The translations under genes and the position numbers were made by a program. The notes below the pieces were generated by a model. That model was not told where the DNA came from. It saw nothing but the letters and a program-made list of their open reading frames with translations, and did no database searches. 64,000 nt of DNA from Candidatus Poribacteria bacterium (GTDB lineage: Bacteria > Poribacteria > WGA-4E > WGA-3G): positions 448,001 through 512,000 of the forward strand of contig CBDANF010000002.1 of assembly GCA_965197475.1 (NCBI GenBank), written 5' to 3'. How positions within the stretch are numbered: position 1 is the stretch's first letter; each line of letters begins with the position of its first letter. Positions 1 to 38,215 of this stretch are shown piece by piece.

Positions 1-2350
1 CAAAATCGGGGATGTCACGTTGATAATTGACATGTATGTATTTGGAGTTATTTCGGCGTCTGCTTGAAATTTCGCTTTCGTTTAACCAACCAATTTGGAC
101 AGCAAGGTTATCAAGGATGTCATATTTTGCTTTGAGGTGATAACCCTGACGGTCTATCCCGTATTCGTATTGGGGTTCAAAGTCATCCTCAATCGAATCA
201 AAGGTGCCGTTATTATTTTGATCAATAGCGTTGCTAAACACAGGTGGGTCAGCATCAAAAATAAGAAAATCTTCTTGATAGTCTAATACTCCGTTCTGAT
301 CCCGGTCATCAGCACGCGGAATTAGTCCATCAAAGTCAATGTCATCGGGCCAATCATCGTCATCATCGTCATCTTCAATGAGTGTATAACTGGTAGCGTC
401 CCATGGAGTTTGTTCTTCTGGAATTCGTTCTTCCAAAGGTATATCATTTCTCCCTCTTTCAAGTGTGAAAATTTGACCACGGTTCGGATGTGCCCCAAAA
501 TTCAGGTAGTTGGTTGTGTAGCCTGGGTCAATATGATACAAAACACCTTCTAAGTGGAGTTTGTCAAAGCGAGACTCAAGTTGGATGAACCATGCCGTTT
601 CTCTACCAAGTTTTCCGTTGCCACCTTCATCTGTCCCGTCACCCCCTAAAATAGCCTCAAAACGTTCACCTTCGGTTTCCGAGTAGGTGGGGATGCCATT
701 TCTGTCTACTGGGAGTCCGCTGTTATCAATAGAAACACCTGTTGGTTCCTCACCATCGCGAGTCTGGATAGTAGTTTTGGTTCGACTAAATCCTACTTTA
801 TCTTTGGGGATAGTAGGATACTGTTTGTATTTACCATTAATAGAGTAGTGTGTCCTGACGAAAACATTGCCGACAGTCCCTTCAAGGTCAAGTCCGTAAA
901 GAGCAGCAGCACGTGCGGCACCATAGCGGTATCGGATTTTCCGAGGTCTCCCCTCACCTTTCCATTTACTGGGATTGTCTATAAGTTTTTCCCTGTTTTT
1001 GGTGTAATTTGGAGATTGACCGTAATTCCCCGGAGCCTGAATTATATCACGATACGGTATCTGAATGTGACCATCTTCAGTTTTAATCCACTCTTGTAGT
1101 TCGGGGTTTGACACCGCTTTATTTGCTTCACTAAATCCAATTACAGCGATGTTGTAATCGCCAGCAACAACCATCTCAAATACAACGGATTTGACTGTTC
1201 TCGGGTCAATGTTTATCCTCTCATCAGAAAGAATAAGGTCATATTTCATTTTATTGAAACCTTTGACAATTTTCCACCTCCCATCTACGGAATCATGTAT
1301 CTCTGATGGTCCTCCAGCGTGATCAACCGGCACAAGCTGGTCAGCATAAACTTCAAATTGACGAGTCTTTTTCGGTAGAAGTTTGGGTTTAATACTTTCT
1401 TTTATATCTTCAGGGATCAATTCTTCAAGTTCTTGTGTAATGATCGTAATCTTCATGCTTTTAAAAGCTGCACCGACACCATCTTGGATATTATCGCTAT
1501 GTCTGTCAGGATCATAACCATCAAAATCAGTGAAGGCACTCATGTGATTATCCTCAGGCGAGTCATCACGGAAAACAACTGAGATTGTTTCCGGGGGTGT
1601 ATTGGCTACAGTCCCCATTAATGAATTTATTACGCGTTCCGGATGTTCTCTATGCAAATTTACATAAGTAAATCCGACGCGGAACATTTCGCCTAAAAGT
1701 CCCTGACTGCGAAAACCGATGAGTCGTGTGTTTTCAATGTTCCTGACACCGGTCAATAGGTTCAACCCGTTTTGGCGGCCAAGATCCCGTCCGAGTCTTT
1801 GCATTGCTGCAGAATCTGTTATTTTAATAGAATTAGAAATACGTGAGTGGATGAGGGAAAAGAGATGGTGCTCTTGGGCAAAAGAAATATCCCACCGAAG
1901 CCCATCAAACTCAGTTTTGTATATAACATATCGGTTTGGAAACAGGGTAGCAGGTTTGAGCCGTATGTGATCGCCAATAGCAAACTCAGAAAATCTACCA
2001 AGAAAGGTATTTTCAACCAAGATGGTCCGGTCCAATTGCGCTGTGAAACGTAGACTATCAAGCTGACCTCCCCAGCCAACAATTAATTTACCGTTCTTAT
2101 CAAATTCTTTCTGATCAACGTACTTATTAAGTTCGCTGCCTTCCATAATCTTTTTACCATAAAGGTCATAGAAGTGTTGCGGGTTTTCTTCCATTTGGAA
2201 TCTATCTGAAAATTTAGCCTCCCCATCAATTGAAGGCAAGAGGGGTTTATGCGGTCCGAGACTTTCCGCGCCACAACCGTAGAACACAGACGTACTAAAG
2301 ATGCAAGTCACTACAAGTAAAGAATTAATCTCGCGTTTTAACTTGTTCAT
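1..2350 (-). CDS. Large secreted lipoprotein with Asp-rich Ca-binding-like repeats; partial, runs off the window start (at least 783 aa)
   Basis: Read manually, absent from the ORF track because there is no stop in the window. ATG at 2350 gives MNKLKREINSLLVVTCIFSTSVFYGC (lipobox-like). The same frame is still open at position 1 (...NSKYIHVNYQRDIPDF). Contains DDDDDDDWPDDIDFDG, DRDQNGVLDYQED and DQNNNGTFDSIEDD. Confidence 0.85.
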   Translation of the reverse strand, partial: MNKLKREINSLLVVTCIFSTSVFYGCGAESLGPHKPLLPSIDGEAKFSDRFQMEENPQHFYDLYGKKIMEGSELNKYVDQKEFDKNGKLIVGWGGQLDSLRFTAQLDRTILVENTFLGRFSEFAIGDHIRLKPATLFPNRYVIYKTEFDGLRWDISFAQEHHLFSLIHSRISNSIKITDSAAMQRLGRDLGRQNGLNLLTGVRNIENTRLIGFRSQGLLGEMFRVGFTYVNLHREHPERVINSLMGTVANTPPETISVVFRDDSPEDNHMSAFTDFDGYDPDRHSDNIQDGVGAAFKSMKITIITQELEELIPEDIKESIKPKLLPKKTRQFEVYADQLVPVDHAGGPSEIHDSVDGRWKIVKGFNKMKYDLILSDERINIDPRTVKSVVFEMVVAGDYNIAVIGFSEANKAVSNPELQEWIKTEDGHIQIPYRDIIQAPGNYGQSPNYTKNREKLIDNPSKWKGEGRPRKIRYRYGAARAAALYGLDLEGTVGNVFVRTHYSINGKYKQYPTIPKDKVGFSRTKTTIQTRDGEEPTGVSIDNSGLPVDRNGIPTYSETEGERFEAILGGDGTDEGGNGKLGRETAWFIQLESRFDKLHLEGVLYHIDPGYTTNYLNFGAHPNRGQIFTLERGRNDIPLEERIPEEQTPWDATSYTLIEDDDDDDDWPDDIDFDGLIPRADDRDQNGVLDYQEDFLIFDADPPVFSNAIDQNNNGTFDSIEDDFEPQYEYGIDRQGYHLKAKYDILDNLAVQIGWLNESEISSRRRNNSKYIHVNYQRDIPDF

Positions 2351-19962: not shown

Positions 19963-20450
19963 TTGAAAATTGGTTCAGTTGTTCGAAATTTTAGATTATC
20001 TTTTGTTTCAATCTCGGTTATAACTTGCCGAACATCAGTTTGGGTCAAGATGTTTAATTTCCAGAGTGCGCGTAAAATATGAGCTAAGTTAATACAATCG
20101 ATACGGTTTGCGTTGCAGTGGTGCATTACGCGACGTTCGTTGCTAACCAAAATGGCTTTTAGGCGTTTACATAGTGCCATAGATTCGCGCTCTCCCGCAT
20201 CAAGTGTTTGTGGTAAAGAGTGCATAAATTCTTGATCTGCACTTGTCAGATGATGTATGCGAATTTGACCTTGTGTTTTTAGTTCTATGATTTGATAGGC
20301 GAAGTGAAACCCTTTTGAACTCGCTACTTTGATTTCATTTTCGACAGCAGTAGCAATGTTAAGCTGGTCTTGATGAAAAACCACGAACAAGAGGGATAAT
20401 TTCTGAATCTTGGCGAAAATTGAAAGAACATCAGTATCAACAAAGACCAA
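19959..20450 (-). CDS. PIN-domain protein (DUF3368-like toxin)
   Basis: VFVDTDVL, LDAGERESMAL, LVSNER. Confidence 0.75.
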   Translation of the reverse strand: MVFVDTDVLSIFAKIQKLSLLFVVFHQDQLNIATAVENEIKVASSKGFHFAYQIIELKTQGQIRIHHLTSADQEFMHSLPQTLDAGERESMALCKRLKAILVSNERRVMHHCNANRIDCINLAHILRALWKLNILTQTDVRQVITEIETKDNLKFRTTEPIFK

Positions 20451-20452
20451 AG

Positions 20453-20776
20453 TTATTGTTCCTCTGTACTGATGTTTGATTTGTGCAATTCCCTGATGAC
20501 CGCAATTCCCGCTTCCAAATTTTCATCTGAATCAACTTCGGCAATTTTAGATATACCTTTCTCCTTTAAAACCGCTTCCAACTCGAAACGGTGGATTCCT
20601 GCTAATTCAGCGGCTCTTCCGAGCGTCACTTCACCTTCTTGGTATAGCAGGATTGCGGCATCAAGTTGTGATTCAGCATCAAGAGATTTCCGTAGTTGAT
20701 CGCGTTCCATTTTAGGCAATTTTTGTATCAACGGCAGTAGTTTTTCAAGAGTAATCGGTTCAGAAATTTGGATCAT
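20453..20776 (-). CDS. UPF0175-family antitoxin
   Basis: AILLYQEGEVTLGRAAELAGI..FE..L..KGI motif; upstream of the PIN gene. Confidence 0.8.
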   Translation of the reverse strand: MIQISEPITLEKLLPLIQKLPKMERDQLRKSLDAESQLDAAILLYQEGEVTLGRAAELAGIHRFELEAVLKEKGISKIAEVDSDENLEAGIAVIRELHKSNISTEEQ

Positions 20777-21084
20777 CCTATTCTACTCCTTTCTGAAATT
20801 TTAGGCGTTTTCAGAGTCGTGTGCAATTGCAGGCTGTTCGCCGAGTTGGTTCTCACTGTAGGGGTTTTGCATAATTCATGAAATGGTCTTGTATCTAACG
20901 ATAGGCATTTCGACGATGTTTGATTCGATAAATGCCAACACGCCGTGTTGCATGGACAGTATAAGGCGTTGGCGTGTTCAAAGTTTTCCCTCTTTTATCA
21001 GGTCGGTTCGAATGTCTTGATAGTCGCGAAACTCAGTTTCGGTTTCGACCACAGCATTAGTGTCCGTATAATTGTCTTATTGAT

Positions 21085-21114
21085 ATTATACATCTTCACA
21101 GGCGTACTTGTCAA
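21085..21114 (-). promoter_or_regulatory. Internal sigma70 promoter upstream of the TA pair and hsdR
   Basis: TTGACA-N18-TATAAT just after the hsdS stop. Confidence 0.65.
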
Positions 21115-21133
21115 TTGCTTTCAGAGTGGCGAG

Positions 21134-22381
21134 CTAAATTATGTTGTCTTTGTTAATATCAAGTTCAGATACGTCTATTTCGCCAGAGATGAGTTTGGGG
21201 AGGAGAAGGTCGCGGGTTTGGCGGAGGTTGGCGTTTTTTTCTAACAAATTGTTAAGTGATTTTCTCAGTGAGGTAATCAATTCCTCAAAACTTTTTCTTA
21301 CATCCTGTGTTGGAATAACTAATCCAAAATCGGTGATAACTCCCGCACTCGCGCTTTTACGAGTGGTGCCAGTGCTTGCTCCATCTACGTAATTTTGATA
21401 ACGGGCATCTAAAAGAGCGTAAAAGAGGTAATAGGGTGATAGGAACGTAGACCTTAATTTCAAACGGATTAGATAAGAGGCAAAAACAGCATTAATATCT
21501 TTTTCAATTATTGCTACTTTCCCAGGATCTGCCATACGAATCACGAGAATATCACCGACATCAAGTTGATATTTCGCATGTTTTTTTGCGTCAATTGGAC
21601 AAAAAGGCACTGCTCCCCAATCGATGTATGTAGTTTTATTGATATCTTTACCTCTAACGAACTTCGGTCCAACTTCATCTTCAGTAGCAGATTCGGTATA
21701 GCCGTATTGCGTCAAAACTAGATCTGCAAGCTGCTTAACTTCCCATCCCTGCGGTATCTGTCCCAATTTTGATTCTACCATCTGGACGTTCTCATGTTCC
21801 GGAAATCGGTAGTGGACGAACCATTCTCTATAGAGGGTTTGTGCCATGTCTTCAAGGATTTTGATGCGGCGGGTGTTGTTTTCAATAAGGTCGTCGTTGG
21901 TGCTGAGGATAGCGGCGATTTTGCGTTGGGTTGGGAGTGGTGGAACACAAACCTTAAGTTTTGCGAATGAAGTCTTATTGACTATAGGGGTAGCAACACC
22001 ACTCGCAACATTCTGGAGAATATCTGTTTGTGTTCTGAGAAGGTAATAAACAAAATATGGGTCGTACTTTTGTTGATTTGCCACAACGCTGTTGATTTGC
22101 TGATTTGTTACGCTGGGAACAGATGTCATGCAAATCTTACCGATGCTTGCAATACAAACTACACAAACAGCATTGCGTGGCAGCAAACGTTTTTTATTAT
22201 ATTCATATCCTTTCTGTGATAAAAATCGTTCGGTATGAACAATGCGAGAATCTATTTCTATATCAGTTGGGGTGATAAAGGGATATTCATTGCCGTAATA
22301 CTCTGTTTTTTTTGTAGGTGGAGTAGAGCCTGTAATGATCTGTCCCAAGTCATTGATAGTTACGTTCTGCCACGTATTCAT
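21134..22381 (-). CDS. hsdS: Type I R-M specificity subunit
   Basis: Two TRDs, PPLPTQRKIAAILS..DDLIENN, LRQTRDLLLPKLISGEIDV. Confidence 0.95.
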   Translation of the reverse strand: MNTWQNVTINDLGQIITGSTPPTKKTEYYGNEYPFITPTDIEIDSRIVHTERFLSQKGYEYNKKRLLPRNAVCVVCIASIGKICMTSVPSVTNQQINSVVANQQKYDPYFVYYLLRTQTDILQNVASGVATPIVNKTSFAKLKVCVPPLPTQRKIAAILSTNDDLIENNTRRIKILEDMAQTLYREWFVHYRFPEHENVQMVESKLGQIPQGWEVKQLADLVLTQYGYTESATEDEVGPKFVRGKDINKTTYIDWGAVPFCPIDAKKHAKYQLDVGDILVIRMADPGKVAIIEKDINAVFASYLIRLKLRSTFLSPYYLFYALLDARYQNYVDGASTGTTRKSASAGVITDFGLVIPTQDVRKSFEELITSLRKSLNNLLEKNANLRQTRDLLLPKLISGEIDVSELDINKDNII

Positions 22382-22441
22382 ACTGCGTTCCTAAATCAAA
22401 TTACAATTTCTTCTATACATTCTTCTATCTCAATCATAGTT

Positions 22442-23593
22442 TTAAGGTGTAGCGGGGGATGGATTACGAAGTCTAGCGACTGGAGCGAAGGTTGGAGATT
22501 CAACCATTTGTAGATTCTGTCCCAAAAAGAATTTCTTAAGATCCTCAGTGTATTCCGGCATTGGGTCTTGATCAACTATGTAAAACAATTCACGCCCAAC
22601 ACGCGAAAGGGCAACACCCGATATCCTTAATTCTGGCTTATTCTCTCGTTCTGGTAAGGGTGATAAAACCCAATGTTTTCCTTGATATTGGAATGGTAAA
22701 AGGACTGGGTTATCTTGACTTATTATGCACAAATTGTAGTCATACCGAGAATTGTAAGACGAAATAATCAGATCGTATTCGTTTAGTAAATTAAGTTGGC
22801 CATACCTTAAACCATATTTTTCAAGTGCATTAGTTCCAGGGTTGCCACCCAGAGAAGCAACTCTGGCATCAAGAATCATTTCGCTATTTGGAATTCCAAA
22901 GACCCCATAGACTACACATGCGGAACAGAATTTTTTGAACAAAGCGGCGATTTCTTGATCTAGCTCACTGAGGAGTTTTACAGCTTTTATTGAATACGAC
23001 CCTGGTTTCTCAATTTCACCAGCTAAGACGCGACCGAAACGACGTTGCATATCCTCACTACTTTTTTGACTCCCCTCTTTCTCAAAAATGTTGAACCAAT
23101 CATCGTCAATTGTTTTCTCTTCGTTAGTGTTCTCGCCTTGATTTTTTGGATCCGCAGCTTGTTCTTTATTCTGTTCACTGGTGTTTTCATCTGTTGCGTT
23201 GTCAGTTTTCGTTTTTTTAAGTATATCTGTAGCAAACCCCAATATTTTCTCAAGATTGTGCTGTTCCCGCAGTATTCTCTTCGCAAATGTATTTGATGCT
23301 CTCTGTGGAAATTCAGGATCAACCTTTAATTGCTGAATAATTTGGGCATTAATTGCTTCTGTAATTTTAATACGCGCTTCCGATTCTGACCTTTTCTCTG
23401 CAGATCTTCGTTCAAGAGCTCCAACAGGTATATCAATTAAAGCAGAACCTAACCTGTCCAAAGCCTTAAGCACGTTTCGCCTGATTGGAACAGGAATAGT
23501 TGAATCTAAAGCCAGATCGGTGACAGCATCAAGCGCAGTATTTGATGTGTCTTCGGTTGTTACGGGAAGATCTGGTTTTGTTTCATCAGACAT
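22442..23593 (-). CDS. DUF2806-like hypothetical protein
   Basis: REQ.NLE.I, IDDDWFN.F, SSEDMQ..FGRVLAGEI.KPGSYS motif. Confidence 0.7.
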   Translation of the reverse strand: MSDETKPDLPVTTEDTSNTALDAVTDLALDSTIPVPIRRNVLKALDRLGSALIDIPVGALERRSAEKRSESEARIKITEAINAQIIQQLKVDPEFPQRASNTFAKRILREQHNLEKILGFATDILKKTKTDNATDENTSEQNKEQAADPKNQGENTNEEKTIDDDWFNIFEKEGSQKSSEDMQRRFGRVLAGEIEKPGSYSIKAVKLLSELDQEIAALFKKFCSACVVYGVFGIPNSEMILDARVASLGGNPGTNALEKYGLRYGQLNLLNEYDLIISSYNSRYDYNLCIISQDNPVLLPFQYQGKHWVLSPLPERENKPELRISGVALSRVGRELFYIVDQDPMPEYTEDLKKFFLGQNLQMVESPTFAPVARLRNPSPATP

Positions 23594-23697
23594 AATTAAT
23601 CTTTCATTTTTTTATTACCAAAACGAATTGTGTTATTCATACTGTTATGTGTTTTCTATTCATTTTCAATCACAGATTTTGGATTATGGAGGATAGA

Positions 23698-24027
23698 TCA
23701 CGAAGTCGTAACGACTCGCAGGTGCCCGCCTTTTTCGTTTGAAGGCTTAATATGAATTTCAACGTCACGGTTCAACTGATTCAGGATTGTAAACAGTTTG
23801 TCCACGTTAAAATCGAAATCCCCGTTCTGTATTCGGGACACATCTGATGGATTGAGTCCAAAACGTTCCTCTGCTTTTGCTGGTGTGAGTTTTAGTTCTT
23901 CAAGTAAACGGTAGATTCTAATGACGAGATCCACTCTTAACTGTTCATGTTCAGCTTCCTCTTTAGAGAAACCGATGTCTAAAAACACATTGCCGGAACT
24001 CTTTGTAAATTTGACCTCTTCACTCAT
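23698..24027 (-). CDS. XRE/HTH_37 antitoxin (HigA-like)
   Basis: SSGNVFLDIGF...HTH...DVEIHIKP; overlaps the toxin gene. Confidence 0.85.
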   Translation of the reverse strand: MSEEVKFTKSSGNVFLDIGFSKEEAEHEQLRVDLVIRIYRLLEELKLTPAKAEERFGLNPSDVSRIQNGDFDFNVDKLFTILNQLNRDVEIHIKPSNEKGGHLRVVTTS

Positions 24028-24376
24028 TTTTTGCCTCCATTTCATGCGCTATTTTCAATCGTTGTTTAATCAAATCAATTTCCTTTTTAGGGGTGCGGAT
24101 ACCACGCGTGGATTTCTTTTGGAATGCGTGGAGCACATAGATATTCTCACCCAATTTGACAGTATAAACTGCGCGATAAGTATTCGTATCGTAACGAGCG
24201 GTAATTTCCAATACACCTGAACCCACTCCCCGCAACGGTTTGGCATTCTTGTCTTTAAGTCCGGATTGAGCAGCCTGTAATGCTCTACCTACCTTTGTTC
24301 TCGCAGCTTTGGGAAAACTCCGTACTCGCACATGCGAATCGCCAACCCATATTACATCTTTCATTACTTCATTCAT
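24020..24376 (-). CDS. RelE/ParE (Gp49-like, HigB-type) toxin
   Basis: KPLRGVGSGVLEI, YRAVY, YVLHAFQKKS..G..TPK.EIDLI..RLK. Confidence 0.9.
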   Translation of the reverse strand: MNEVMKDVIWVGDSHVRVRSFPKAARTKVGRALQAAQSGLKDKNAKPLRGVGSGVLEITARYDTNTYRAVYTVKLGENIYVLHAFQKKSTRGIRTPKKEIDLIKQRLKIAHEMEAKNE

Positions 24377-24394
24377 AATTTAACGCATTCAATA

Positions 24395-25960
24395 TTATAC
24401 CCTATTTTCTAATATCTTCGCAACATTCTCTGCAATGCGTTCTTCCAATTGGTGTGCCTCTGCGTTTAAAATTTCTAATTCCTCATTCAGTTCTGTGAAC
24501 CGTGGCATAAAGTCAAAATCCTCTGTTTCTTGTGTTGCGACACCGACATAACGTCCAGGGTTTAAACTCCATCCTTGCGCTTCAATTTCTTCTACTGTAG
24601 CAACTTTGCATAGACCGGGGACATCCGTATATTTTCCATCAGGAAATTTGTTTTTGAGGAGTTCCGCGCTGTTGTGTCTATTTTCAGGTGTTTCGTTTCG
24701 GTAAAGGCGCGCTATGTTTGCCAAGAATTCGAGTTGCATGGGTGTGAACTCACGGTGTGCACGACTTACTTGTTGATAGAGATGACGCGCATCAATGAAT
24801 AGGACTGTCCCGTGTCTGTCGGTATTCTGTTTGGATTTGTCGAAAAACCAGAGGGTACATGGCAGTGTTACAGTGTAGAAGAAATTTGATGCGATGCTTA
24901 TCATAACATCAACAGCACGAGATTCAATAATCTGCTTACGAATTTCTAATTCCGAAGCGCGCGCATCTGCAGCGGAGTTTGCCATCACAAAACCTGCCTT
25001 TCCGGTATCGTTCAGCGAGCTAAGAAACAACTGTATCCAAAGATAGTTCGCGTTATCTACGCGAGGCATTCCGAACGGGAATCGTGGGTCATCTTTTATC
25101 CGTTCCATATCTACTTTGTCAACATTAAAGGGCGGATTCGCCATCACAAAATCAAATTCGCCTAAAGACTTATGCGGATCTTTATAGTAGCTATTGGCTT
25201 GCTTGATGTCACCTTCATGTCCATGCACTGCAAGGTTCATCTTGCATAGTTTGATAGTCTCAGTTTTCCGTTCAACGCCGTAAATGCTGATACGTCTTTG
25301 GTTTTCGTTTTGTTGATGATTCTGTATGAATTCTTCGCTTTGGACAAACATACCGCCGGAACCGCAAGCTGGATCAAGAATCCGTCCGTGAAAAGGTTGG
25401 AGTATTTCAACGATGAGTTTAACAAGTGAAGTTGGGGTGAAGAACTCACCTCCGCGTTGCCCTTCACTCATAGCAAAATTGCCAAGAAAGTATTCGTAGA
25501 CCTTACCGAAGGCATCGCCTTCAATGTCCATCGAAATTTGTTCCATAATGCGTAGGAGTTCAATCAGCGTGCTCTTTTCAAGGCGATTGTAGTTTCTCGG
25601 CAAAACCCCATCAACCGGCTTATTTTCCGCTTCAATTGCTTTCATGGCGTTGTTGATAGCTTGTCCAATGTTATCGCTTTCTGGCAAATTTAGAAGATAG
25701 TTAAATCGCGACTTTTCCGGTAGATAGAATGCCCCATGTGCTTGGAATTGTGTTTTTTCATCAGTTCGGACCCGCGTACCAGACGGCATTTCTGATTTGA
25801 GTTCTTGTTGCACTTGTGTGAATTTATAGTCTGCATATTTTAAAAAAATAAGTCCTAAGACTGGCGTAGAGTATTCCGAAGCATTAAGATCTGAATTGGC
25901 CCTCAATTCATCTGCAGCACTCCAAAGTGTTCTTTCTATTTGAGTTAAGTTGGCATTCAT
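24395..25960 (-). CDS. hsdM: Type I R-M N6-adenine methyltransferase subunit M
   Basis: [28 protein letters not shown]. Confidence 0.95.
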
Positions 25961-26039: not shown

Positions 26040-29000
26040 TTAGAAGAAGGAACGACCAAGTGAATTTCCGCTGCCAAATGCGTTATACGGCACACCTGCA
26101 GGTAAAGTATGGAGTCCCCATGTGTCAGTAGTCGCGTCAAAACCGACCCCCATAGAAACTGCTGGTTCACCTATCAAGTTAACCTGAAATGTAAAATCTT
26201 GTCGGACGTTGTCAAACGGTGGATCGCGTTTGATTCCGACTCGACTCCAGGAGATACGGAGGTTCCAATCGTGCAAATTGCGGTTAATGCTGACACGTTG
26301 TGAGTAAAATTGCCCTTCAATTGGATAGTAGATGAGGCTAAAGTCAAACTCAAGATCCTTGTTGAAACGGTATCGCCCATTAGCAGTCATGGAGCGCGAA
26401 GCTCGTATAGAGGTGTGTCGGTTGCTAAAGGAATTACCGAGACTGACATACCATTTTTGCCGTGTATATCTAATATTGGTGCGCACACCAACCATTTTGA
26501 ATTGTTTTCCATCATCGGGATGAGGATTTGGGTCATGAGTAAGGCGAACCGTCATATTTAGATTGCGGCTTGGTAATGGAACGATGGTGAAGTCGCTTTC
26601 AATTGGCTCGTATTTGCGCCTATATAACGACTCAAATTCTGTAAAATCAGCGGTAAGGCGGGTATCAAAATAGAAGATACGGTGTGCAGATTGACTGCGT
26701 CTGGTTTTAATTTCTATATTCGTATTGAAATTATATGTTAGCCTTTTGCGTTCATAGAAATAGGTACTGGGACCAAACGGGTAAAGACTGTTTTCCTCAT
26801 CAATAGGCGGTTGAAAATCAAAAGTAAGAGAGGATTGCAATTCATGGCGCAATTTTCGGACACCGGGTATAAAACTGGCGTTGTAGATACGGAATAGGGT
26901 ATTGGTAACTTGTGATCTGATACTGTAAACCCCACGTATTATGTTTTTATTTTTGTCTTGGTCTTTAGCGTGCCAGATAGCGTTTGTGTTCAGACGGGCA
27001 CTTATTTTTATCTCGCGCAAAGGGGTAATAAAAAGGTTTGCTTGCTTGCGCAGGTCAAACCCTAAGTCAATTGTCTGAAGAAAAACGTCATTTTCTTCAC
27101 CGTGTTTGCCGCGATAGGTTTGTCTAAAGAAGTTGCCAAATTCAATATCCATATCAAAACTGGTATCTTCAAGTGTTGGGAAAGCGAGAAGGGAGAGAAT
27201 AGGTATGTCGGTTTTGAGTTTTTCCGAGACAAGAACCATCCCATCGTTAATCGTTTCAAATACTGGAAGCCTGCTAAACCGCATCCGTGAAAAATTCACG
27301 GTCAATTGCGGTAATTTTTGGAGTGCGGTGGTGCCTTGTCCAGAGAAATCATGGATGTGTCGAACTTCGAGCCTGCCTGTGAAGTCACCGATGGTTTCTC
27401 GTGAATACCTGAGGTTCCCGTTTTCATCAACGTCCTTTTCACTTGCGGCGGAGAAGGCTGTGCCGTAGGTGATTATCCCAAAAGAATTGAGAGAAGATTC
27501 ATTTTGGATCTCCAAATCATCTTTATAGTTGACAGCACGCCACGCGGTCCGTCCAACGAAACTAAGTGGACGGCGCCCTGCTTGTCGGCTATCCCAGGGC
27601 GTATAGAAGGATTGTCTATGTCCCCACCGCATATTCCAACGTCTACCAATTCGGGATGCGCTCTGTCTGCTAAAGGAGTACTCGTCCGCCCCGTAGAGAT
27701 AAAAATCTCCGTAATAACTTCGCTTCTTATCTACTTTGATGAGTCTAAACGATTTTTTTGTATTAATTACTCGGCTATATTCATCAGCATAAAGACTTTG
27801 TGCTTCTGATGCCACTTGTCTTGGGTCTTCCCACCGTCCACGAAAACCGTATTTTCTATAAACTTCAAACTTTTCTTCCTCTTCAGCACTTTCTTGCTCA
27901 GTGGTTGTTGCGTCTTCGGGTGTCGCTGGTGGTGTGGACGTTTCGCTTTCAGCATCATCGGTAACAACAGGGGGCGAGGTGCTATCACCACCATTAGGTT
28001 TCTTAGTTTCATCGGAAGTGGTTGTGTTTTCCTCTTTAGGTGGTGTAGTTAAAACCTCAGCTTCAAAAGTTTCCCATTCGGCTTCAAACTGCTCGGCGAG
28101 TTCTTCAAACGTGGGTGTTTCCTCCTTTTTGATTAATTGAAAGATATAAAGACCTTCAGGTGAAAAAACAGGACTACGTTGGGTAATGTCTCCAGGTTTT
28201 TCCAAACGTCGGACAGAATATTGCCATCCGGTGTCCATCTCATTAAGGGGCAATCCGTTGCCATCATTAATTTCGGATAATTTTGCTTCAGTGAATTCCG
28301 AGGCAAGTTTTTCAAATGTTTCACCAGCAAGCGCGCGTTCGTGTATATTATTAGCGGTTTCACGAACGCTCTGCTGTGTTTCAGTACTTGCGGTGATAGC
28401 GATATCAATGCGGAGCAATTTAATTTCGCGTTCACCGTAGATGTTAAGCACACGCTCCGCTTTGAGGATATGAAAAGCGGATTCGGTTTTTAAGACACTG
28501 CTAATTTCACCTTCCTTAAGTGTGAACGCTGCTTCTTCTAAGACCGGCTCAAGTATTGGATTGCCGTCTTTGTCTTTCTCGCCTCGTGCAAGGAATCCCA
28601 TATCACCACCATCGTAACGTGTATCTGAATGGTCAGATACACTCTGGGCGAGTTGTGAAAAGTCAGCGGCATCTTCATTAAGTTGTTTGAGGATTTTTTC
28701 CGCTTCTTCTTTTGCACGGATAGCATCTTCATCAGAGATCTGATACTCCAGGAAAAGTTTTCTTAGCCAATATCGGTCATAGTCACCTTCAAGACGACCA
28801 TATATCTCTTTTGCTTTTTCTTCCAATTTTGTACGTTGGGCAGGGGTAGCGTTAGGCGGGATAGGAATATGGATCTCTCGGAACTGCGTATCACTAAATC
28901 GATATTTTCCTTCTAATCCGAAACCTTGTCCTCTTCGCGCGCTTCTGTCGTATAAAAGTGCACCATCGTAGCGTCTTTTGCGGGCTACAGGTAAGATGAT

Positions 29001-29768
29001 ACTGATGTTGGGACCTTGATAGCTATCTGTTCCGACTCTAACGATAATCTTTGCGACTTTGCCTTTCCGCAGGTCGCGCCGAATAGCAGGAAAATAGAAG
29101 AGCGGAACGCCACCGATCCGCAAGACGATATTTTTGGCAATCATCTCTTGGTTCATTTTGACAATCACTTCGGAAACGCTGAAATGGTAGTGCGGGTATT
29201 TCAACGAGCAGGTCGTTAGAGAACCACCGCGGATATAAGATTTTTTGTCCTCAATTTTAAAGATCTCGCTTCCTCCAAAATACCACGGATCGCTAAATGT
29301 GTACCCATTTCTGGCAATCCCCTTCTTGGTTTCGAGGTTGAAAACCAGTTCATCGGAATAGGTCTCATCATCACCGACTTTAAGATAAACGTTACCAGCA
29401 GCGCGCATCAGGTTATCATTGAAGTCTGCCCACACGTGGTCTGCTCGCAAAATGACATCTTCATATTTTATGAGAGCATTCCCATGAATTTGAACGAAGT
29501 TATCTTGTAAAATGACTTCGTCCCCATCGCCTATTACCGTGTCTGCTTCAGGAGTCATCTTTTCAGGATTTAAGGCTTCTTTAGCAGCTGTGACAGTCTG
29601 ATTCGTATCTTGAATAGCCTGTGTATCGGCTTTTTCTGGATCGTCTGGGGAAGGAGATTGTGAGGCTTGCGCATTCACTGACTGTAACGGTAAGAACAGA
29701 CAGGTGAAAACTACGACAGCAAACAATAAGGCACATAAAAGTCCGGTAATGTGATGTGTATTCTCCAT
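26040..29768 (-). CDS. lptD: LPS-assembly protein LptD with inserted parvulin (PPIase) domains
   Basis: Signal peptide, OstA-like jellyroll (GNALIKY..LRAD, YSDELVFNLETKKG, TTC...PHY, GGVPLFYFP), barrel strands ending NRNLHDWNLRISW, internal FSQLAQSVSD...GGDMGF...EAAFTLKEGEIS...TESAFHILK; adjacent to surA. Confidence 0.8.
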   Translation of the reverse strand: MENTHHITGLLCALLFAVVVFTCLFLPLQSVNAQASQSPSPDDPEKADTQAIQDTNQTVTAAKEALNPEKMTPEADTVIGDGDEVILQDNFVQIHGNALIKYEDVILRADHVWADFNDNLMRAAGNVYLKVGDDETYSDELVFNLETKKGIARNGYTFSDPWYFGGSEIFKIEDKKSYIRGGSLTTCSLKYPHYHFSVSEVIVKMNQEMIAKNIVLRIGGVPLFYFPAIRRDLRKGKVAKIIVRVGTDSYQGPNISIILPVARKRRYDGALLYDRSARRGQGFGLEGKYRFSDTQFREIHIPIPPNATPAQRTKLEEKAKEIYGRLEGDYDRYWLRKLFLEYQISDEDAIRAKEEAEKILKQLNEDAADFSQLAQSVSDHSDTRYDGGDMGFLARGEKDKDGNPILEPVLEEAAFTLKEGEISSVLKTESAFHILKAERVLNIYGEREIKLLRIDIAITASTETQQSVRETANNIHERALAGETFEKLASEFTEAKLSEINDGNGLPLNEMDTGWQYSVRRLEKPGDITQRSPVFSPEGLYIFQLIKKEETPTFEELAEQFEAEWETFEAEVLTTPPKEENTTTSDETKKPNGGDSTSPPVVTDDAESETSTPPATPEDATTTEQESAEEEEKFEVYRKYGFRGRWEDPRQVASEAQSLYADEYSRVINTKKSFRLIKVDKKRSYYGDFYLYGADEYSFSRQSASRIGRRWNMRWGHRQSFYTPWDSRQAGRRPLSFVGRTAWRAVNYKDDLEIQNESSLNSFGIITYGTAFSAASEKDVDENGNLRYSRETIGDFTGRLEVRHIHDFSGQGTTALQKLPQLTVNFSRMRFSRLPVFETINDGMVLVSEKLKTDIPILSLLAFPTLEDTSFDMDIEFGNFFRQTYRGKHGEENDVFLQTIDLGFDLRKQANLFITPLREIKISARLNTNAIWHAKDQDKNKNIIRGVYSIRSQVTNTLFRIYNASFIPGVRKLRHELQSSLTFDFQPPIDEENSLYPFGPSTYFYERKRLTYNFNTNIEIKTRRSQSAHRIFYFDTRLTADFTEFESLYRRKYEPIESDFTIVPLPSRNLNMTVRLTHDPNPHPDDGKQFKMVGVRTNIRYTRQKWYVSLGNSFSNRHTSIRASRSMTANGRYRFNKDLEFDFSLIYYPIEGQFYSQRVSINRNLHDWNLRISWSRVGIKRDPPFDNVRQDFTFQVNLIGEPAVSMGVGFDATTDTWGLHTLPAGVPYNAFGSGNSLGRSFF

Positions 29769-29878
29769 TGATGTGCCACGCATTGACAGTTGATGCTGCA
29801 ACGTTAATATAGGTTGTATCATTTTATTAATTGACAGGATATCTTTGTTCTTTAACAAGCCTCTCGTTCAAACCGATG

Positions 29879-31210
29879 TCAGTTGTCCTTGCCATCAGAG
29901 GTTGGTACTGCATCGGGTTTGATTTTGATATAAGCATTTTCAAGGAGCGTATCAGTATAAGCGGTCCACTCTTTTTCAAAAAGTTGTTGACGTAGGATAC
30001 CGATAATCTGCAGTTTTTCTTGTTGTGTCAACTCAGGCGTTTTGCGTTCATCAACTTTGTAGATATAGAGACCGACTTCGGTTTCAAACGGTTCACTATG
30101 TTTTCCAACCTCAAGCGGTTCGACAACTTTCCGAGTTTTTGGATTTAACTCAGTTAGGATATGGACCCCAAGGTCCCCACCTTTTTCACGGGTTTCCGCA
30201 TCATCGGAATGTTCTTTAGCAATGGCGATAAATTTTTCCCCAGCTTCTAATTTTTTGAAAATTCCCTCGGCTTGTTCACGGGCAGTCTGTAAAGCCTTTT
30301 CACTAAATAGAAATGGAACAGTTAAATGTCGAAACGAAATCTTTTCATCAGTTCGGGTTTCAACCATGAAAACATGGATGCCATCAGCCGCTTCAATAGG
30401 TTCACTAACTTCCCCTGCTTTGAGTTTGGCAAGGACAGTTAGGAACACATCAGGATATGAAAGTATCTCTGCGGGAGTGGTTTCAATGAGAGAGCCGGCT
30501 TGGGTGTTTGGATTATGTTTTGAAGCGATGCGGCGAGCAACAACTTCAAATTGTGTTTTATCTGATCGGATCTCTTCAAGTGCCTGATTCACCGCATCAG
30601 ATGCTGCCTTTCTGTCTGCTTCGGTCGGTTTAAAAGCAATGAATACATGACGCAAATGGACTCTATCAGCTTTAGTTGGAAGTTGATCGCGGTTTTCTTC
30701 AAAAAATTTTTGGACATCGCTATCGCGTACCTGTAACCGTGGTAAAATTCTTCCCATAACCAATTTTTCCGTCATCATGTTCCGCTGGATTTGTTCACGA
30801 AAAGCAACAATAGTCATTCCATCGCGGTTAAGCAATTTTTTGAATTCTTCGTCTGATGGAATTTGGTATTGCGTCTTAAACTTTTGAATTTGTTCCTGAA
30901 CCTCAACGTCGGCGACTTGAATTTTTAGGGTTAAAGCTGCTTCTAACAGAAGCATTTGGCGAATGAGTCGATCTAAAAGTTCACCTCGCTGCTTTTCAGC
31001 CTCTTTAAGTGCTTCACTTTCGCTGAATCGGTGACTCTGCTGAAGTTCAAAGGCGTGCTGCTTAACCACTATGTCAAGTCGTCGTTTTGTTATGATATCA
31101 TCGTTGACATAAGCGATAATTTTATCAAATATCTTCGCAATACCAGGAGTCACGCTGCTGAAGATGAGAAGTAGAATCAGAAGCACACTCATTATTATTT
31201 TGGGGTTCAT
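29879..31210 (-). CDS. surA: SurA-like periplasmic chaperone/PPIase
   Basis: DKIIAYVNDDIIT SurA N-terminus, two parvulin domains (LRHVFI; AKEHSDD...GGDLG). Confidence 0.85.
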   Translation of the reverse strand: MNPKIIMSVLLILLLIFSSVTPGIAKIFDKIIAYVNDDIITKRRLDIVVKQHAFELQQSHRFSESEALKEAEKQRGELLDRLIRQMLLLEAALTLKIQVADVEVQEQIQKFKTQYQIPSDEEFKKLLNRDGMTIVAFREQIQRNMMTEKLVMGRILPRLQVRDSDVQKFFEENRDQLPTKADRVHLRHVFIAFKPTEADRKAASDAVNQALEEIRSDKTQFEVVARRIASKHNPNTQAGSLIETTPAEILSYPDVFLTVLAKLKAGEVSEPIEAADGIHVFMVETRTDEKISFRHLTVPFLFSEKALQTAREQAEGIFKKLEAGEKFIAIAKEHSDDAETREKGGDLGVHILTELNPKTRKVVEPLEVGKHSEPFETEVGLYIYKVDERKTPELTQQEKLQIIGILRQQLFEKEWTAYTDTLLENAYIKIKPDAVPTSDGKDN

Positions 31211-31324
31211 GACAGACCTCCACTGTTAGTTCGAAATTCAATTGTCGGTGATAACAACTTGCTAAGGCAACAGAAGTTGCACAAAATGTGTTTATAGTAA
31301 AATCCATAATTATTTTTACACTGT

Positions 31325-31350
31325 GGTGCGGTTAGGAAACCGCACCTACC
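31325..31350 (-). repeat. GTAG-type REP hairpin
   Basis: Minus strand GTAGGTGCGGTTTCCTAACCGCACC; lies within a weak TATAG...CTATA bracket (31293-31379). Confidence 0.7.
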
Positions 31351-31431
31351 AGGGTGTTCATAAGTTTTAAATTTCTATAAGACACCTAACCACCAAAGCA
31401 AATATTTTGGTGATATATTTCTAACTGCCTG

Positions 31432-31470
31432 TAAAAATAAGACGGGCGGAAATTGTAGTACCGCCCGTAC
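31432..31470 (-). terminator. Probable intrinsic terminator
   Basis: Minus strand acgggcgg-N11-ccgcccgt followed by cttatttt, just after the 31500 stop. Confidence 0.55.
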
Positions 31471-31499
31471 GTACTATCTGACAACCCTTCAATGAGAAT

Positions 31500-32474
31500 T
31501 TATTTCTCTGGTGATGTTTGTTCGGAGGGTTTTTCAGATTCTTTTTCGGGGACTTCGTCCTCCGGAATGCGGTCAATGAAGGTTTTAACTTGTGCCTGTT
31601 CTCGGAGCTGAGAAACCCACGCTTTCATCAGAGCGTCCCGTCGTTCCCGTTCAACCTTTCTAATGATGTTTTTACGGACATCCTCTTCACTAAAAGGTCT
31701 CTGATATGCGTCTCTGGCCTCTTTCTTAACGAACATCATGTAGTATTTTTCACCCTGCACCTCAATTTCAATGACTGATGGGTGGAGTGTGTCAATTTCT
31801 GCGCTGAAGGCAGCTTCTATGAAGGGTTCTGTTCCTGGTGGATAAGTGTTTTTGCTAATGAAGTCGGTGTCACCGGGTGAGGCAGGGTTTGCTCCAGGTC
31901 CCACCAATTCGCCTCTATCAGACAGTTCTTGTGCTGCAACGGTGATATCTTTTCCGGCTTTTATTTCAGCAAAAACTTCATCGGCGCGTTCTTTGTCCAT
32001 AAGCGTGATGCACAACAGTTTGACCTGTTCAGGACGAACGTAATCCTCTTTGTGCGCTTCATAATATTTCAGATAATCTGTTTCGTCCAGGATAAGTTTG
32101 TCATCAACTTCCTGTTCCGTGATTCTGTCAATCATTAAATCCTGAAGATAGTCTTTGACCTTCTTAAGAATTTCATGATCTTCGTTCAGTTTCTGGTCTT
32201 TGGCAAGACAGAGGATTAAACGACTTTCTGCCATGAGGGTCATATATTCTTCAAGCCCCGCTTTGTCTTTATATTGACGTTGTTTGTATCCAGGAAGTTC
32301 GCTGATTTCCTGCATCATTTCTTCAAGAGTGATTCGTTGTTTTCCATCCCATTCATATTCAGCGATGACGGTTCCATCAGCACCAATTGCTTTGTCGCCA
32401 CAACTATACAAAAATGGAAGTGTGGCAAGGATAGCGAATAATAAGATAAAGGGAATACTACTATATTTTTTCAT
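31500..32474 (-). CDS. Parvulin-type PPIase lipoprotein (PrsA/EpsD-like)
   Basis: LYSC lipobox; YYEAHKEDY..PEQV, F.EAAFS; paralogue of the next gene. Confidence 0.8.
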   Translation of the reverse strand: MKKYSSIPFILLFAILATLPFLYSCGDKAIGADGTVIAEYEWDGKQRITLEEMMQEISELPGYKQRQYKDKAGLEEYMTLMAESRLILCLAKDQKLNEDHEILKKVKDYLQDLMIDRITEQEVDDKLILDETDYLKYYEAHKEDYVRPEQVKLLCITLMDKERADEVFAEIKAGKDITVAAQELSDRGELVGPGANPASPGDTDFISKNTYPPGTEPFIEAAFSAEIDTLHPSVIEIEVQGEKYYMMFVKKEARDAYQRPFSEEDVRKNIIRKVERERRDALMKAWVSQLREQAQVKTFIDRIPEDEVPEKESEKPSEQTSPEK

Positions 32475-32507
32475 TAATTCTACCTCCTTTAGGTAATGTT
32501 GTGGGAG

Positions 32508-33482
32508 CTACTTCTCTGGAGTATTGGATTCCTCTTCCGATGTTTCTGGCTGAACGGGTTCAGGAATATTCTCTGGATAAGTTTTCAGTTTTCCTCTTTT
32601 AGAGATTTCTTCAACCCATTCAAGAATACGGGCGCGTTTCATCTCTCGTTCAACTTTCCGTTTAACGTCGGATTGGACTTCATCAAATTCTTTCTGGCGT
32701 TCTGGTTGATGTTCCTCTTTGCGGAAAATGAGGTAATATGTTTCATCGTTTACATCAGTTTCAAAGACAGCATCAGTCATTTCGCCATTTTCCATCTCAA
32801 AAACAGCTTCAATAAATTCAGACCAGTTTGGCGATGCGGTTTTGCTAAAGAAAAATGTGTTGCCAGGATCCTTTTCACCTGTGCCAGGACCGTTAACTAA
32901 TTTTTTTTCTTCAGAGAGTTTCTTTGCCATTTCAACAATATCTTTTCCGGCTTTAATCTGGTCTAAAGTTTCATTAGCTAAGTCTTCGTCATCAAGGGTA
33001 ATACAGGTTGCACGTGCCTTTGCGTCTTCAATGTATTCACTCTTGTGCTTCTCGTAAAACGTCATGAGGTCTGTATCCGTGTAAGACACCTTTGCATCAA
33101 CTTCCGTTTCGGTGAGTTTTTCAACCATGAGTTGATGGGTATAATCTTCAACTTTTTTAAGGTGATCTTCTAATTTGTCAAACCCCACATCTGTCGCTTG
33201 GAGCAGTTTGAGTTTTTTGTCAATATAATCTTCTAAGTATTCTGCTTTACCCTCTTTATTGGCATAGTTTTGCTGGCGGTAGGACGGTAATTCTGCAATA
33301 GCAGATTCCAGCTCAGCAAGTGAAATCTGGTGAAGTTCGTCTTTCCACTTCAATTCAGCTAAAATTATTTGATCCTTGTCAACCTCTTTTTCTGCGGATT
33401 CGTGGTTGTCAGAACGGACAAGAGACCAAGTGAGAAGACAAGTTGCAACAGCTACTGTAACAACAATAAATAATTTTTTCAC
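32508..33482 (-). CDS. Parvulin-type PPIase (PrsA/EpsD-like)
   Basis: N-terminal anchor; FYEKHKSEY, FIEAVFEM..GEMTD, P.RQKEFDEV. Confidence 0.8.
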   Translation of the reverse strand: MKKLFIVVTVAVATCLLTWSLVRSDNHESAEKEVDKDQIILAELKWKDELHQISLAELESAIAELPSYRQQNYANKEGKAEYLEDYIDKKLKLLQATDVGFDKLEDHLKKVEDYTHQLMVEKLTETEVDAKVSYTDTDLMTFYEKHKSEYIEDAKARATCITLDDEDLANETLDQIKAGKDIVEMAKKLSEEKKLVNGPGTGEKDPGNTFFFSKTASPNWSEFIEAVFEMENGEMTDAVFETDVNDETYYLIFRKEEHQPERQKEFDEVQSDVKRKVEREMKRARILEWVEEISKRGKLKTYPENIPEPVQPETSEEESNTPEK

Positions 33483-33543: not shown

Positions 33544-36500
33544 TCAATTAGATACAACAAACATAGTCAAAATTTGTTGTAATTCGGTTAATAATTTTTT
33601 TCCGGTGAGTTTCTCTATACTAATTATCAGTTGTGCTGGCGGACGTAGTTGGAGCAGCGGGTTATCTTGAATTGCATCAATGAACTGCACCACATCAATC
33701 TTCGGGTTGTGTTCATCAAAGGTCACTTTAATTCGGTTACCTCCCGCAACAATCCCCGTAATACCTAATTTTTGGCATAGTTGTTTGATACCACAAATTT
33801 CCAACAACATCTCAACAGGTTCAGGTATGTCTCCATATCTGTCTTTAAGTTCATTGGTCAGTTCATGCTTATCTGTATCGGTTTTTAGCGTAGAAATTTT
33901 CTTATAGATAGCAATTTTCTGTCGGCTGTCAGGGATATAGTCGTCTGGCAAAAATGCATCAATAGGTAAATTTATACTAGTTTCAATTTCTTCTTCAATC
34001 TTTTCGCCTTTTAAAGTTCGGACAGCCTCATCAAGCAGTTTACAATAGAGTTCGTATCCAACGTTCGTGATATGTCCATGCTGTTGGGCACCGAGGATAT
34101 TCCCTGCTCCACGTATTTCTAAGTCTCTTAGTGCTATTTTGAAGCCAGAACCGAGGTCCGTAAATTCTTCAATAACACGTAGCCGTTTCTGTGCGCGTTC
34201 AGTTATCGGTTTATCTTGTGGGTAGAAAAGGTAACCGTAAGCTTGTGCATCGGCACGTCCGACCCGACCACGAAGTTGATATAACTGTGCTAATCCGAAC
34301 GCATCCGCCCGATTTATCATGATGGTATTAACGTTCGGAATGTCAAGTCCGGATTCAATAATCATCGTACAGACGAGGATATCATGTTTGTGGCGGACAA
34401 ACTCTAACATGACACTTTCTAACTCGCGTTCAGGCATCTGTCCGTGAGCGATAGCAACCCGTGCATGCGGAACAAGTTCTTGAATGGTTTTGGCAATTAT
34501 AGCAATATTCTGTACACGGTTGTGGACGAAGAATACCTGTCCGTTTCTCGCTAACTCATTCATTATAGCATCTCGGATAACTTTAGTGTTGTAAGGCATC
34601 ACATGCGTCTGAATCGGCAACCGATTGGCTGGGGGTGTGTTGATAATACTGAAGTCTCTGATGCCAATAAGAGACATGTGCAAAGTGCGCGGAATCGGTG
34701 TCGCTGTGAGCGTAAGGACATCTACTGTCTCTTTAAACTGCTTAATTTTTTCTTTGTGTTTCACGCCGAAACGATGTTCTTCGTCAACTATTAGTAATCC
34801 GAGATTATCAAAAATGACGGAATCGGAAAGCAGGCTATGCGTGCCAATAACAATATCGACGGTGCCATCTTCAAGTCTTTCTTTAACCGATTGAATTTCC
34901 TTACGGCTTCGGAAACGGTTGAGCATTTCAACATGGATGGGAAACGGTTTGAAACGTTTTTCAAAAGTGTCGTAGTGCTGCAGGGTGAGGATAGTAGTTG
35001 GAGCGAGGAGGGCGACCTGCTTTTCTGCCATGACTGCTTTGAAAGCGGCTCGCAATGCAACTTCCGTCTTACCGTAACCAACATCTCCGCAGACGAGTCG
35101 ATCCATAGGTTTTTCAGTCTCCATGTCAGCTTTAACGTCTTCAATGGCTTGGAGTTGGTCATCTGTTTCTTGAAAAGGAAAGAGTGCCTCAAATTCACCT
35201 TCCCATGACACCTCTGTCGGAAAACCATATCCTTTGCTTGCTTGCCGCGCGGCGTATAATTTAAGCAGTTCTTCTGCCATTTCTTCAACAGCAGCTTTTG
35301 CGCGTTGTTTTTTGTTTTGCCAAGATTTTCCACCAAGATAATCTATGCTCGGTTGGTATGCTTCATCTTTGTTTCCAATATACTTTTGAACAAGATCAAC
35401 TTGGTATGTTGGCACATAGAGTCTATCGTCTTCCTTGTATCTAAGGATGAGAAAGTCCTGAGATTGTCCATCTATATCAATTCGGCGAATGCCTTCGTAA
35501 ATTGCAATACCGTGCGAAATGTGAACAACATAGTCTCCTACTTTCATATCTACGAGGCTTAAAATCGGTGTGCCGTTTTTGTGTCGTTTTGGTGAAACAA
35601 CTCGCCGCTGCTGACTTCCAAAAATCTCGCTTTCTGAGATAGCAACAAGTTTGAGCGATTCACTCAGAAAACCTTCGGATATAAAACCAACACTAACGGA
35701 AGTATGCTCTGGTGGTAGGTCGCGCTCAATCAACATTTCTAAAACCCGTTTTGCCTGTTGTGGCGTTTCGCAGAAAACGTTAACCAGATACCCTTTAGTT
35801 GTCCACCTTTTGATGTGGTCAATAACCATCTGGTAGTTGCCGCTACCGAGCCCAAGCGGCTTCATGCCAAAATGTAGTTCCAAGATATCTGTGGATTCAT
35901 TAACCTTAGCGGATATCTCTTGATTATCATGATCGGATGCTAAAGAGATAGGGATGTTCGGATAGTTTCCTAATTCAGACTGAAGTTTGTTAGTCGGAAC
36001 TAACAAACTATCAAGAGTCGGCATCAATTTTCCCTCTGCCAACTTCCGATCATATATTTCTTGTAGTTGCTCGCGCATCTGTTCTGCTTCCCGAGCTTGC
36101 CATCTCGGTTCAACCATGACGACAATTGTTTCATCTGTTAAATAATCGGTCCACATTTCTGTTTGCGGAAATAACATAGGTAGAAAGGCTTCAATACCCT
36201 CAATTTCCACCGTCGGATCCTCAATTACATCCCATTTTTTAGACTGTGCCCGTCCAAGACAATCCTCTAAGAGTTGTGTCATTTCCCGAATAGTATTGAT
36301 AAATTCGGTAGTATTTGCTGTTTCCTTCATCAGCCGTTCGGTTTGTGATTTCCAATGGGAAATAGAGATGTCAGCAAGACATGCCTCTGACATCGGCGTG
36401 ATAACAACGGAAGTGTCCTGCTCTATTGAAACTTGTGAGGTCGGGTCAAATAGGCGGATGTCGTCAAGTTCATCTCCAAAAAAATCAAGTCTGGTAGGTG

Positions 36501-37140: not shown

Positions 37141-37238
37141 GAACTGTTCCTTGTTGTCCGGTAGCAGGAGTACACCTAATGATAGAAAAAGCATCGCGGA
37201 AATGCACGTGTGTTCCGCGCGACTAACAATCGAACTAT

Positions 37239-38093: not shown

Positions 38094-38215
38094 CTCTTGC
38101 GGATCAAAAAACCGATTTTGATTGCGAAATACACTGACAGTAAAGTCGGTTCAAGCAAAAAGATATTATAACCGTTCCCATCATCTTAACAAACAACACT
38201 TTCATAGCAGACACG

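Follow-up and report, generated by a model that had tools for sequence, protein, structure and literature searches.

Can an outer-membrane translocon for lipopolysaccharide (LPS) carry chaperone domains within its own chain? The question is raised by a single open reading frame (ORF) in a 64,000-nucleotide stretch of a Candidatus Poribacteria genome (assembly GCA_965197475.1, contig CBDANF010000002.1, positions 448,001 to 512,000; hereafter the window, in whose coordinates positions are given), for which a sequence-only reading had proposed an LptD with parvulin domains grafted into a periplasmic turn of its barrel. The ORF, here called lptD, occupies 26040..29858 (-) and encodes 1272 amino acids (aa) from a TTG codon, with its stop codon at 26040-26042. 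The evidence below indicates with high probability that its product is an LptD with the usual periplasmic jellyroll and barrel, in which a folded module stands in place of the turn between strands 4 and 5. The true start is likely Met13 (29822) or Met31 (29768); the database protein P0002, which is 1260 aa long, is 100% identical to the ORF. A signal-peptide-like stretch, recognized by eye from the sequence and not by a predictor, extends to ...SVNA/QAS at about residue 63. NCBI calls the protein only 'peptidylprolyl isomerase'; among its database matches, the names given are 'peptidylprolyl isomerase' or 'hypothetical protein' of Candidatus Poribacteria.

The peptide strings on which the proposal had been built were all recovered in the translation of ORF 26040..29858 (-): ARRGQGFGLEGKYRF at residues 307-321, FSQLAQSVSD at 400-409, GGDMGF at 417-422, TESAFHILK at 458-466, AGETFEKLASEF at 511-522, SPEGLYIFQL at 566-575, TFEELAEQF at 583-591, TKKSFRLIKV at 700-709, YGDFYLYG at 716-723 and RRWNMRWGH at 739-747, together with the T/E/P-rich linker at about 604-662. 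A match of both flanks to E. coli LptD had also been claimed, and of this the left side stands; residues 207-320 align to E. coli LptD 163-277 (hhalign, probability 92%, E 6.8e-7), and the alignment stops exactly at the left edge of the insert, with ...RRGQGFGLEGKYR opposite ...HRRGN-IMWENEFR of E. coli. On the right, the barrel alone gave a colinear but non-significant hhalign alignment to E. coli LptD (probability 1.5%, E 0.035), which is the only place where the proposed pairing RRWNMRWGH/RRWLFYWNH is seen; indirect support for this flank comes from the fold matches and from insert-free relatives of the LptD_2 family, both described below. The alignment profile matches the sequences of solved LptD proteins (8h1r, 3.4e-14; 7omm, 3.7e-12).

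Solved LptD barrels have 26 strands. An AlphaFold2 model covering residues 100-1272 (predicted local distance difference test, pLDDT, 78.4; predicted template modelling score, pTM, 0.56) presents, in order, a jellyroll, four barrel strands, the insert, and 22 long strands plus two short ones; in the model the barrel thus has 26 strands (4+22). The N-terminal LptA/OstA-like β-jellyroll (29073..29537 (-), residues about 108-262) includes a conserved TTC...PHY motif with Cys217, spans model strands E9-E163, and superposes on LptA 2r1a (VIA-align; Z 13.3, root-mean-square deviation (rmsd) 1.8 Å, 112 aa, model 5..117). It is followed by barrel strands β1-β4 (28896..29057 (-), residues about 268-321; E173-179, E183-194, E198-207 and E211-233 of the model) and, beyond the insert, by strands β5-β26 (26151..27713 (-), residues 716-1236), for which the model has 22 strands. 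When the model was searched with Foldseek, the best match was full-length LptD, 4q35_A (E 6.9e-22), with thirteen more LptD chains at 6.4e-20 to 1.3e-14; ranks 1-13 are all LptD chains (E 6.9e-22 to 8.2e-16). VIA-align superposed the model on full-length LptD across the insert, with Z scores of 17-20 over 609-628 aligned residues (model 3..1137 paired with E. coli 46..770); with barrel-only LptD crystal constructs the alignment sets in at model residues 165-174. The insert would lie on the periplasmic side, as had been suggested, because an even number of strands precedes it after a periplasmic N-domain, the jellyroll being the periplasmic docking domain. The chain ends in a C-terminal extension of 36 aa (26043..26150 (-), residues 1237-1272, ending ...GRSFF), the last 21 aa of which have low pLDDT in AlphaFold2.

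The limits of the insert are drawn by relatives that do not have it. The barrel alone (residues 711-1272) was used as a phmmer query against 1.84 billion representative proteins at E <= 0.001 and matched 30 proteins, ten of them long; a Pfam scan took in nine of these ten, P0122 being left out. Rotamase domains were found in four of the nine (P0124, P0127, P0130 and P0144), whose best matches are in Poribacteria genomes at 37-68% identity. The other five (P0143, P0145, P0146, P0147 and P0151) consist of LptD_2 plus LptD without Rotamase, LptD_N being present in four of them, and they were matched directly by the barrel query at 7.2e-9 to 7.1e-4. In a 59-sequence alignment the N-domain, TTC..PHY motif and first barrel strands of these five can be matched to the query; they then show a gap at query residues about 322-710 and realign from the ...RRW...H motif. 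By this comparison the insert comprises 394 aa, residues 322-715, at 27714..28895 (-) in the β4-β5 turn; relative to the earlier estimate of about 385 aa at 27730-28880, the limits are here moved outward at both ends. The four insert-bearing relatives whose C-terminus is intact in this alignment all have the C-terminal extension; none of the five insert-free ones does. Only two Rotamase-bearing clusters were found in the protein Atlas, both apparently this same family; neither among these clusters nor among the nine long barrel matches scanned was the LptD-parvulin architecture found outside the phylum, a result that comes from these two sets and not from a direct scan of other phyla.

The insert modelled by itself in AlphaFold2 (pLDDT 81.5) has its best Foldseek matches in a tandem-parvulin peptidyl-prolyl isomerase (PPIase) of B. 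fragilis (8hm4, 3.9e-11), PpiD (8zht, 3.9e-6) and SurA (1m5y, 8.5e-6). It opens with a continuation of β4 and one helix (28785..28895 (-), residues 322-358; E2-11 and H18-36 of the insert model). Next comes a well-conserved parvulin with GGDMGF and FHILK motifs, parvulin A (28437..28781 (-), residues 360-474), which matches Pfam Rotamase over residues 375-468 with 98.5 bits (E 4.6e-28), matches PrsA 2jzv at 1.8e-9, and superposes on PrsA 6vj4 with an rmsd of 1.1 Å over 82 aa (VIA-align). A score of this size is well beyond what chance would give, but the 'clear parvulin motif set' of the sequence-only reading needs qualifying: of the four canonical catalytic positions, two hold other residues. 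Further degenerate parvulin pieces had been noted as well, and a genome-wide scan gave a second Rotamase match of 31.3 bits (cut-off 21.7) at window positions 28131-28391, or residues about 490-576; it falls in parvulin B (28122..28433 (-), residues 476-579), which has lost the GGDLG motif, has parvulin-type secondary structure in AlphaFold2, and aligns to the P2 domain of the SurA-like protein encoded next door.

Parvulin B is followed by a helix, TFEELAEQFEAEW... (28044..28121 (-), residues 580-605; H263-281 in AlphaFold2), which aligns to the F..LAK.YS helix ahead of GGDxGY in P0124 and P0130. Then comes a T/E/P/S-rich loop (27873..28043 (-), residues 606-662) predicted to be disordered (pLDDT < 50), which varies in length and sequence among homologues and is absent from P0124, P0127 and P0130. 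The insert closes with the C-terminal half of a third parvulin, PC (27714..27872 (-), residues 663-715; E346-352, H359-367 and E382-392 in AlphaFold2), whose last strand continues into barrel strand β5; P0130 has GGDIGY...GYRIVRI at this site. A parvulin profile of 115 positions was built from parvulin A. The last parvulin of the relatives matches it over positions 35-110 only (P0124 534-600, P0127 560-624, P0130 786-856), and in the window protein positions 84-110 match residues 685-711 (independent E-value 0.003). Since the last parvulin of the relatives is without profile positions 1-34, we take the outer parvulin to be divided in two. The insert would begin with its strand 1 and helix 1 and end with its remainder, the two complete parvulins A and B being nested in between. 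On the predicted structure, residues 322-358 would then be strand 1 and helix 1 of PC, and the helix at 580-605 is read as its helix 2. The PPIase domain of human Pin1 aligns within model 223..612 (97 residues, rmsd 2.5 Å), the output giving this as a range only.

Among the relatives, the deep-lineage P0130 (1303 aa; 66-68% identical to G004 and L008/L013) has four Rotamase stretches and no disordered loop, keeps the Cys pair of jellyroll and barrel, and in parvulin A has the canonical residues, His and Asp, at the first two of the catalytic positions; judged from its sequence, its parvulin module seems to represent a less derived state.

Directly upstream of lptD lies a SurA-like gene (29879..31210 (-), 443 aa; Pfam SurA_N, SurA_N_2, SurA_N_3 and two parvulins). 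Its product and the insert share 22% identity over 250 aa (BLASTP, E 2e-9); the insert is colinear with the P1-P2-C part of this protein, residues 182-418, P1-P2 pairing with parvulins A and B (PA-PB), and the family profile matches SurA 1m5y residues 168-363 at 1.3e-12. With identity as low as 22% the relationship between insert and SurA must be old, and a recent copy of the neighbouring surA as the source of the insert is ruled out. The adjacency of the two genes is also what would make an artefact conceivable, be it an assembly chimera or a read-through fusion between lptD and the adjoining surA; a chimera of this kind had been named as an outcome that would overturn the proposal. The probability of such an artefact is negligible. 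A database search returned 370 matches, of which the first 121 listed are 1229-1382 aa long with 59-100% identity, many of them on contigs of Mb scale; a phylum sample had a match in 151 of 151 genomes and in 22 of 22 genera (the genome itself counted), and the phylum-sample matches listed are uninterrupted frames of about 1113-1450 aa except at contig ends. Even in the deepest lineages, one frame of 1120-1319 aa holds N-domain, parvulins and barrel in four of five genomes, the fifth being spread over two contigs. The low identity of the insert to the SurA-like neighbour speaks against a fusion as well, as do a guanine-plus-cytosine content that is flat across the region and both insert junctions, and Logan contigs of run X1, possibly the source sample, that span both junctions.

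The architecture is therefore kept across the phylum sample, and the folded parts of the insert are conserved almost as well as the barrel. Mean identity of 48 close homologues to the query is 86% for the jellyroll and 89% for strands 1-4, 69% for each of parvulins A and B, 78% for the C-terminal half of the outer parvulin, 78% for the remainder of the barrel, and 26% for the disordered loop; the C-terminal 36-aa tail, at 87%, is second of the ten regions compared, after β1-β4. At 28057-28122, Logan contigs from runs X1 and X3 contain a short branch of roughly 6-16 times greater depth; it spans only the conserved TFEELAEQF region and diverges into unlike sequence at 28057, which suggests related strains or species with other linkers in the same sample.

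Several observations weigh against reading the locus as an LptD with a built-in chaperone-type module. LptD_2 (PF19838) reached only 19.2 bits at residues 896-1026 in hmmscan, below its cut-off of 22.5, and 21.9 bits in the genome search, or 23.2 with neighbouring pieces added; of the profile searches that had been suggested as a check, then, Rotamase lies above its cut-off, LptD_2 is borderline, and PF04453 (LptD) has no match anywhere in this genome. Pfam LptD_N likewise has no match on the single window sequence. The periplasmic placement of the insert comes from strand parity in a predicted model. No Pfam SurA_N family matches the lptD product or its insert, and SurA_N together with the C-terminal tail carries most of the chaperone activity of E. 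coli SurA; moreover, a free SurA-like protein is already encoded next door. Finally, neither LptF/LptG (PF03739, no match) nor LptE was found in this genome (G000; 5.70 Mb, 3 contigs, 92.7% complete). A weak TIGR04408 match (E 0.12) was rejected as LptF/G, being a MacB/FtsX-type permease. All 20 relatives searched have the LptF/LptG pair, and a search of 21 genomes (G000 and the 20 relatives) gave LptE matches in 15, of which 11 are above cut-off; because relatives have these components, their absence from G000 is probably an assembly gap. The occurrence of LptE in 15 of the 21 genomes also led us to reject the insert as a replacement for LptE. The rest of the pathway is in place: a cluster of lptC, an lptA-like gene and lptB lies beside a lipid A acyltransferase gene, LpxC is present at 1e-87, and PF19838 matches only this gene, making it the sole LptD-like gene found in the genome. 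A repurposed LPS translocon, which the sequence-only reading had offered next to a self-chaperoned one, is unlikely, since no second LptD-like gene was found and the Lpt pathway is in other respects present.

What, then, might the module do? Assembly of E. coli LptD needs SurA, disulfide isomerisation, LptE and further helpers. The explanation that we favour by a small measure joins the architecture with a chaperone-type module that serves LptD itself; the particular mechanism of a tethered peptide-binding module of SurA/PpiD type serving its own LptD is put forward tentatively, as something short of probable. Such a module would project into the periplasm next to the junction of jellyroll and barrel, at a distance of four strands from the strand-1/strand-26 seam. 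During assembly dependent on the β-barrel assembly machinery (BAM), it may hold the very long barrel while this is still unfolded, or guide it; alternatively, it may stabilise the periplasmic face of LptD after assembly. For comparison, SurA is described as binding BAM at the polypeptide transport-associated domain POTRA-1 (PMC11366764). The module would probably be weakly catalytic or non-catalytic, and an efficient prolyl isomerase is not expected. This last point bears on a further reading of the insert, in which parvulin A isomerises prolines of LptD or its partners during maturation. The catalytic positions of Pin1/Par10-type parvulins, which we take to be His / Cys-or-Asp / Ser / His, are K, H, S and H in parvulin A of the window protein. 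Of 54 insert-bearing sequences, 44 retain the Ser and 50 the second His, and GGD(M/L)GF is nearly invariant, which, with the strong Rotamase match, would suit an enzyme; the first His, however, is replaced in 53 of the 54 (by Q in 51), the Cys/Asp position is His in 49, and both parvulin B and parvulin C are degenerate. The replacing residues, for their part, are conserved. With two of the four positions replaced, the residues at hand make it doubtful that parvulin A is an efficient canonical isomerase, and an active enzyme as the purpose of the insert strikes us as improbable.

In E. coli LptD, jellyroll and barrel have to be joined by an interdomain disulfide, and the cysteines of this family bring in another possibility, that of a structural brace: the module would dock on the jellyroll or the barrel rim, fix the N-domain, and so replace the lost disulfide. 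The barrel Cys of the HCW motif, at the position of residue 1197 (LHDWN, window about 26265-26267), is D in 51 of 54 insert-bearing proteins, and is still Cys in all five insert-free relatives as well as in P0130 of the deep lineage; a single Cys, Cys217 (about 29208-29210), remains in the mature window protein and is still conserved. Alignment of these sequences indicates that the barrel Cys of the interdomain pair was lost in the crown clade. The window protein thus departs from E. coli LptD in its interdomain disulfide, a feature that is not universal in the family and whose loss we therefore did not count as excluding membership. In the AlphaFold2 model the insert also lies close to the jellyroll junction, as a brace would. 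P0130, however, has both insert and Cys pair, so that the insert must have preceded the loss of the cysteine, and three parvulin folds would be an elaborate solution to the problem; a brace is rather unlikely. Comparably unlikely, in our estimate, is a more specific form of the self-serving module, in which a built-in folding and quality-control device, possibly together with the C-terminal tail, made the disulfide-rearrangement checkpoint dispensable, the barrel Cys being lost afterwards. The insert might instead act in trans, as a holdase or adaptor anchored in the outer membrane for other outer-membrane proteins, or for LptE or the LptA bridge, much as PpiD works at the Sec translocon. Its fold resembles PpiD and SurA, its folded parts are conserved, and lptD stands in a row of four parvulin-containing genes; but a free SurA-like protein and two more parvulin proteins are already encoded alongside, and one copy per LptD would be scarce for a general chaperone; a role in trans is quite unlikely.

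Set against known LptD proteins of Enterobacteria and Neisseria (4q35, 5iv9, 7omm, 9kn3), the Poribacteria protein shares the LptA-like jellyroll, the 26-strand barrel (here in a model) and the TTC..PHY and vP..y.P motifs. It differs from them in having a folded insert of 394 aa where they have a short strand 4-5 turn, in its conserved 36-aa C-terminal extension, and in lacking the barrel Cys partner; its sequence is so diverged that Pfam LptD misses it and LptD_2 is borderline. The insert-free LptD_2 proteins can be aligned with it from the jellyroll through strands 1-4 and along the remainder of the barrel, but they have no parvulin and no C-terminal extension and keep the Cys pair. SurA (1m5y) and the B. 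fragilis PPIase (8hm3/8hm4), which the insert matches best in fold, likewise have two consecutive parvulins followed by a helix; in contrast to these, the insert is without SurA_N and is not a free periplasmic protein, being nested in a third parvulin that itself sits in a barrel turn. PpiD is tethered at SecYEG. It (8zht) is likewise a parvulin-containing protein of chaperone type attached to a translocon, but it is a separate polypeptide anchored by an inner-membrane helix, whereas here the outer-membrane barrel would be the tether and the module lies within the translocon chain.

No single-chain outer-membrane barrel larger than LptD is known; the protein is essential and a target of antibiotics. 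To our knowledge, there are few folded domains in periplasmic turns of outer-membrane barrels. A full-text literature search, judged by titles and abstract openings of the papers listed, returned no description of an LptD with a parvulin insert, and nothing that pairs LptD with Poribacteria or with rotamase, in agreement with the sequence-only reading, which had known of none; an LptD with a nested, SurA-like module of three parvulins in a periplasmic turn is apparently undescribed. A natural LptD with SurA-type domains offers a handle on how chaperone domains engage such a client, and on whether tethering can replace free-chaperone or disulfide checkpoints. If the built-in folding device proved true, this would be the first outer-membrane barrel with its own chaperone. 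Pathway surveys based on Pfam LptD could score Poribacteria as lacking LptD, since that family finds nothing here and the current label is 'peptidylprolyl isomerase'.

The parvulin-containing genes form a row of four, in which two Rotamase_2 genes of 324 aa each (31500-32474 and 32508-33482, both (-)) precede the SurA-like gene and lptD, the first three occupying 29879-33482. In E. coli K-12 lptD also adjoins surA, but in the opposite order. Parvulin-matching frames of 426-470 aa share a contig with the lptD match in four of the five deep-lineage genomes. The row is preceded by mfd (33544-37194), upstream of which lie genes of the DUF3108 (284 aa) and DUF5683 (202 aa) families at 37239-38824 (-). 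Directly downstream of lptD is a type I restriction-modification system (16789-25960 (-)), with hsdM (24395-25960 (-)), hsdS (21134-22381 (-)) and hsdR (16789-19962 (-)); it encloses a DUF2806 gene (22442-23593) and two small ORFs that overlap each other (23698-24045 and 24020-24376).

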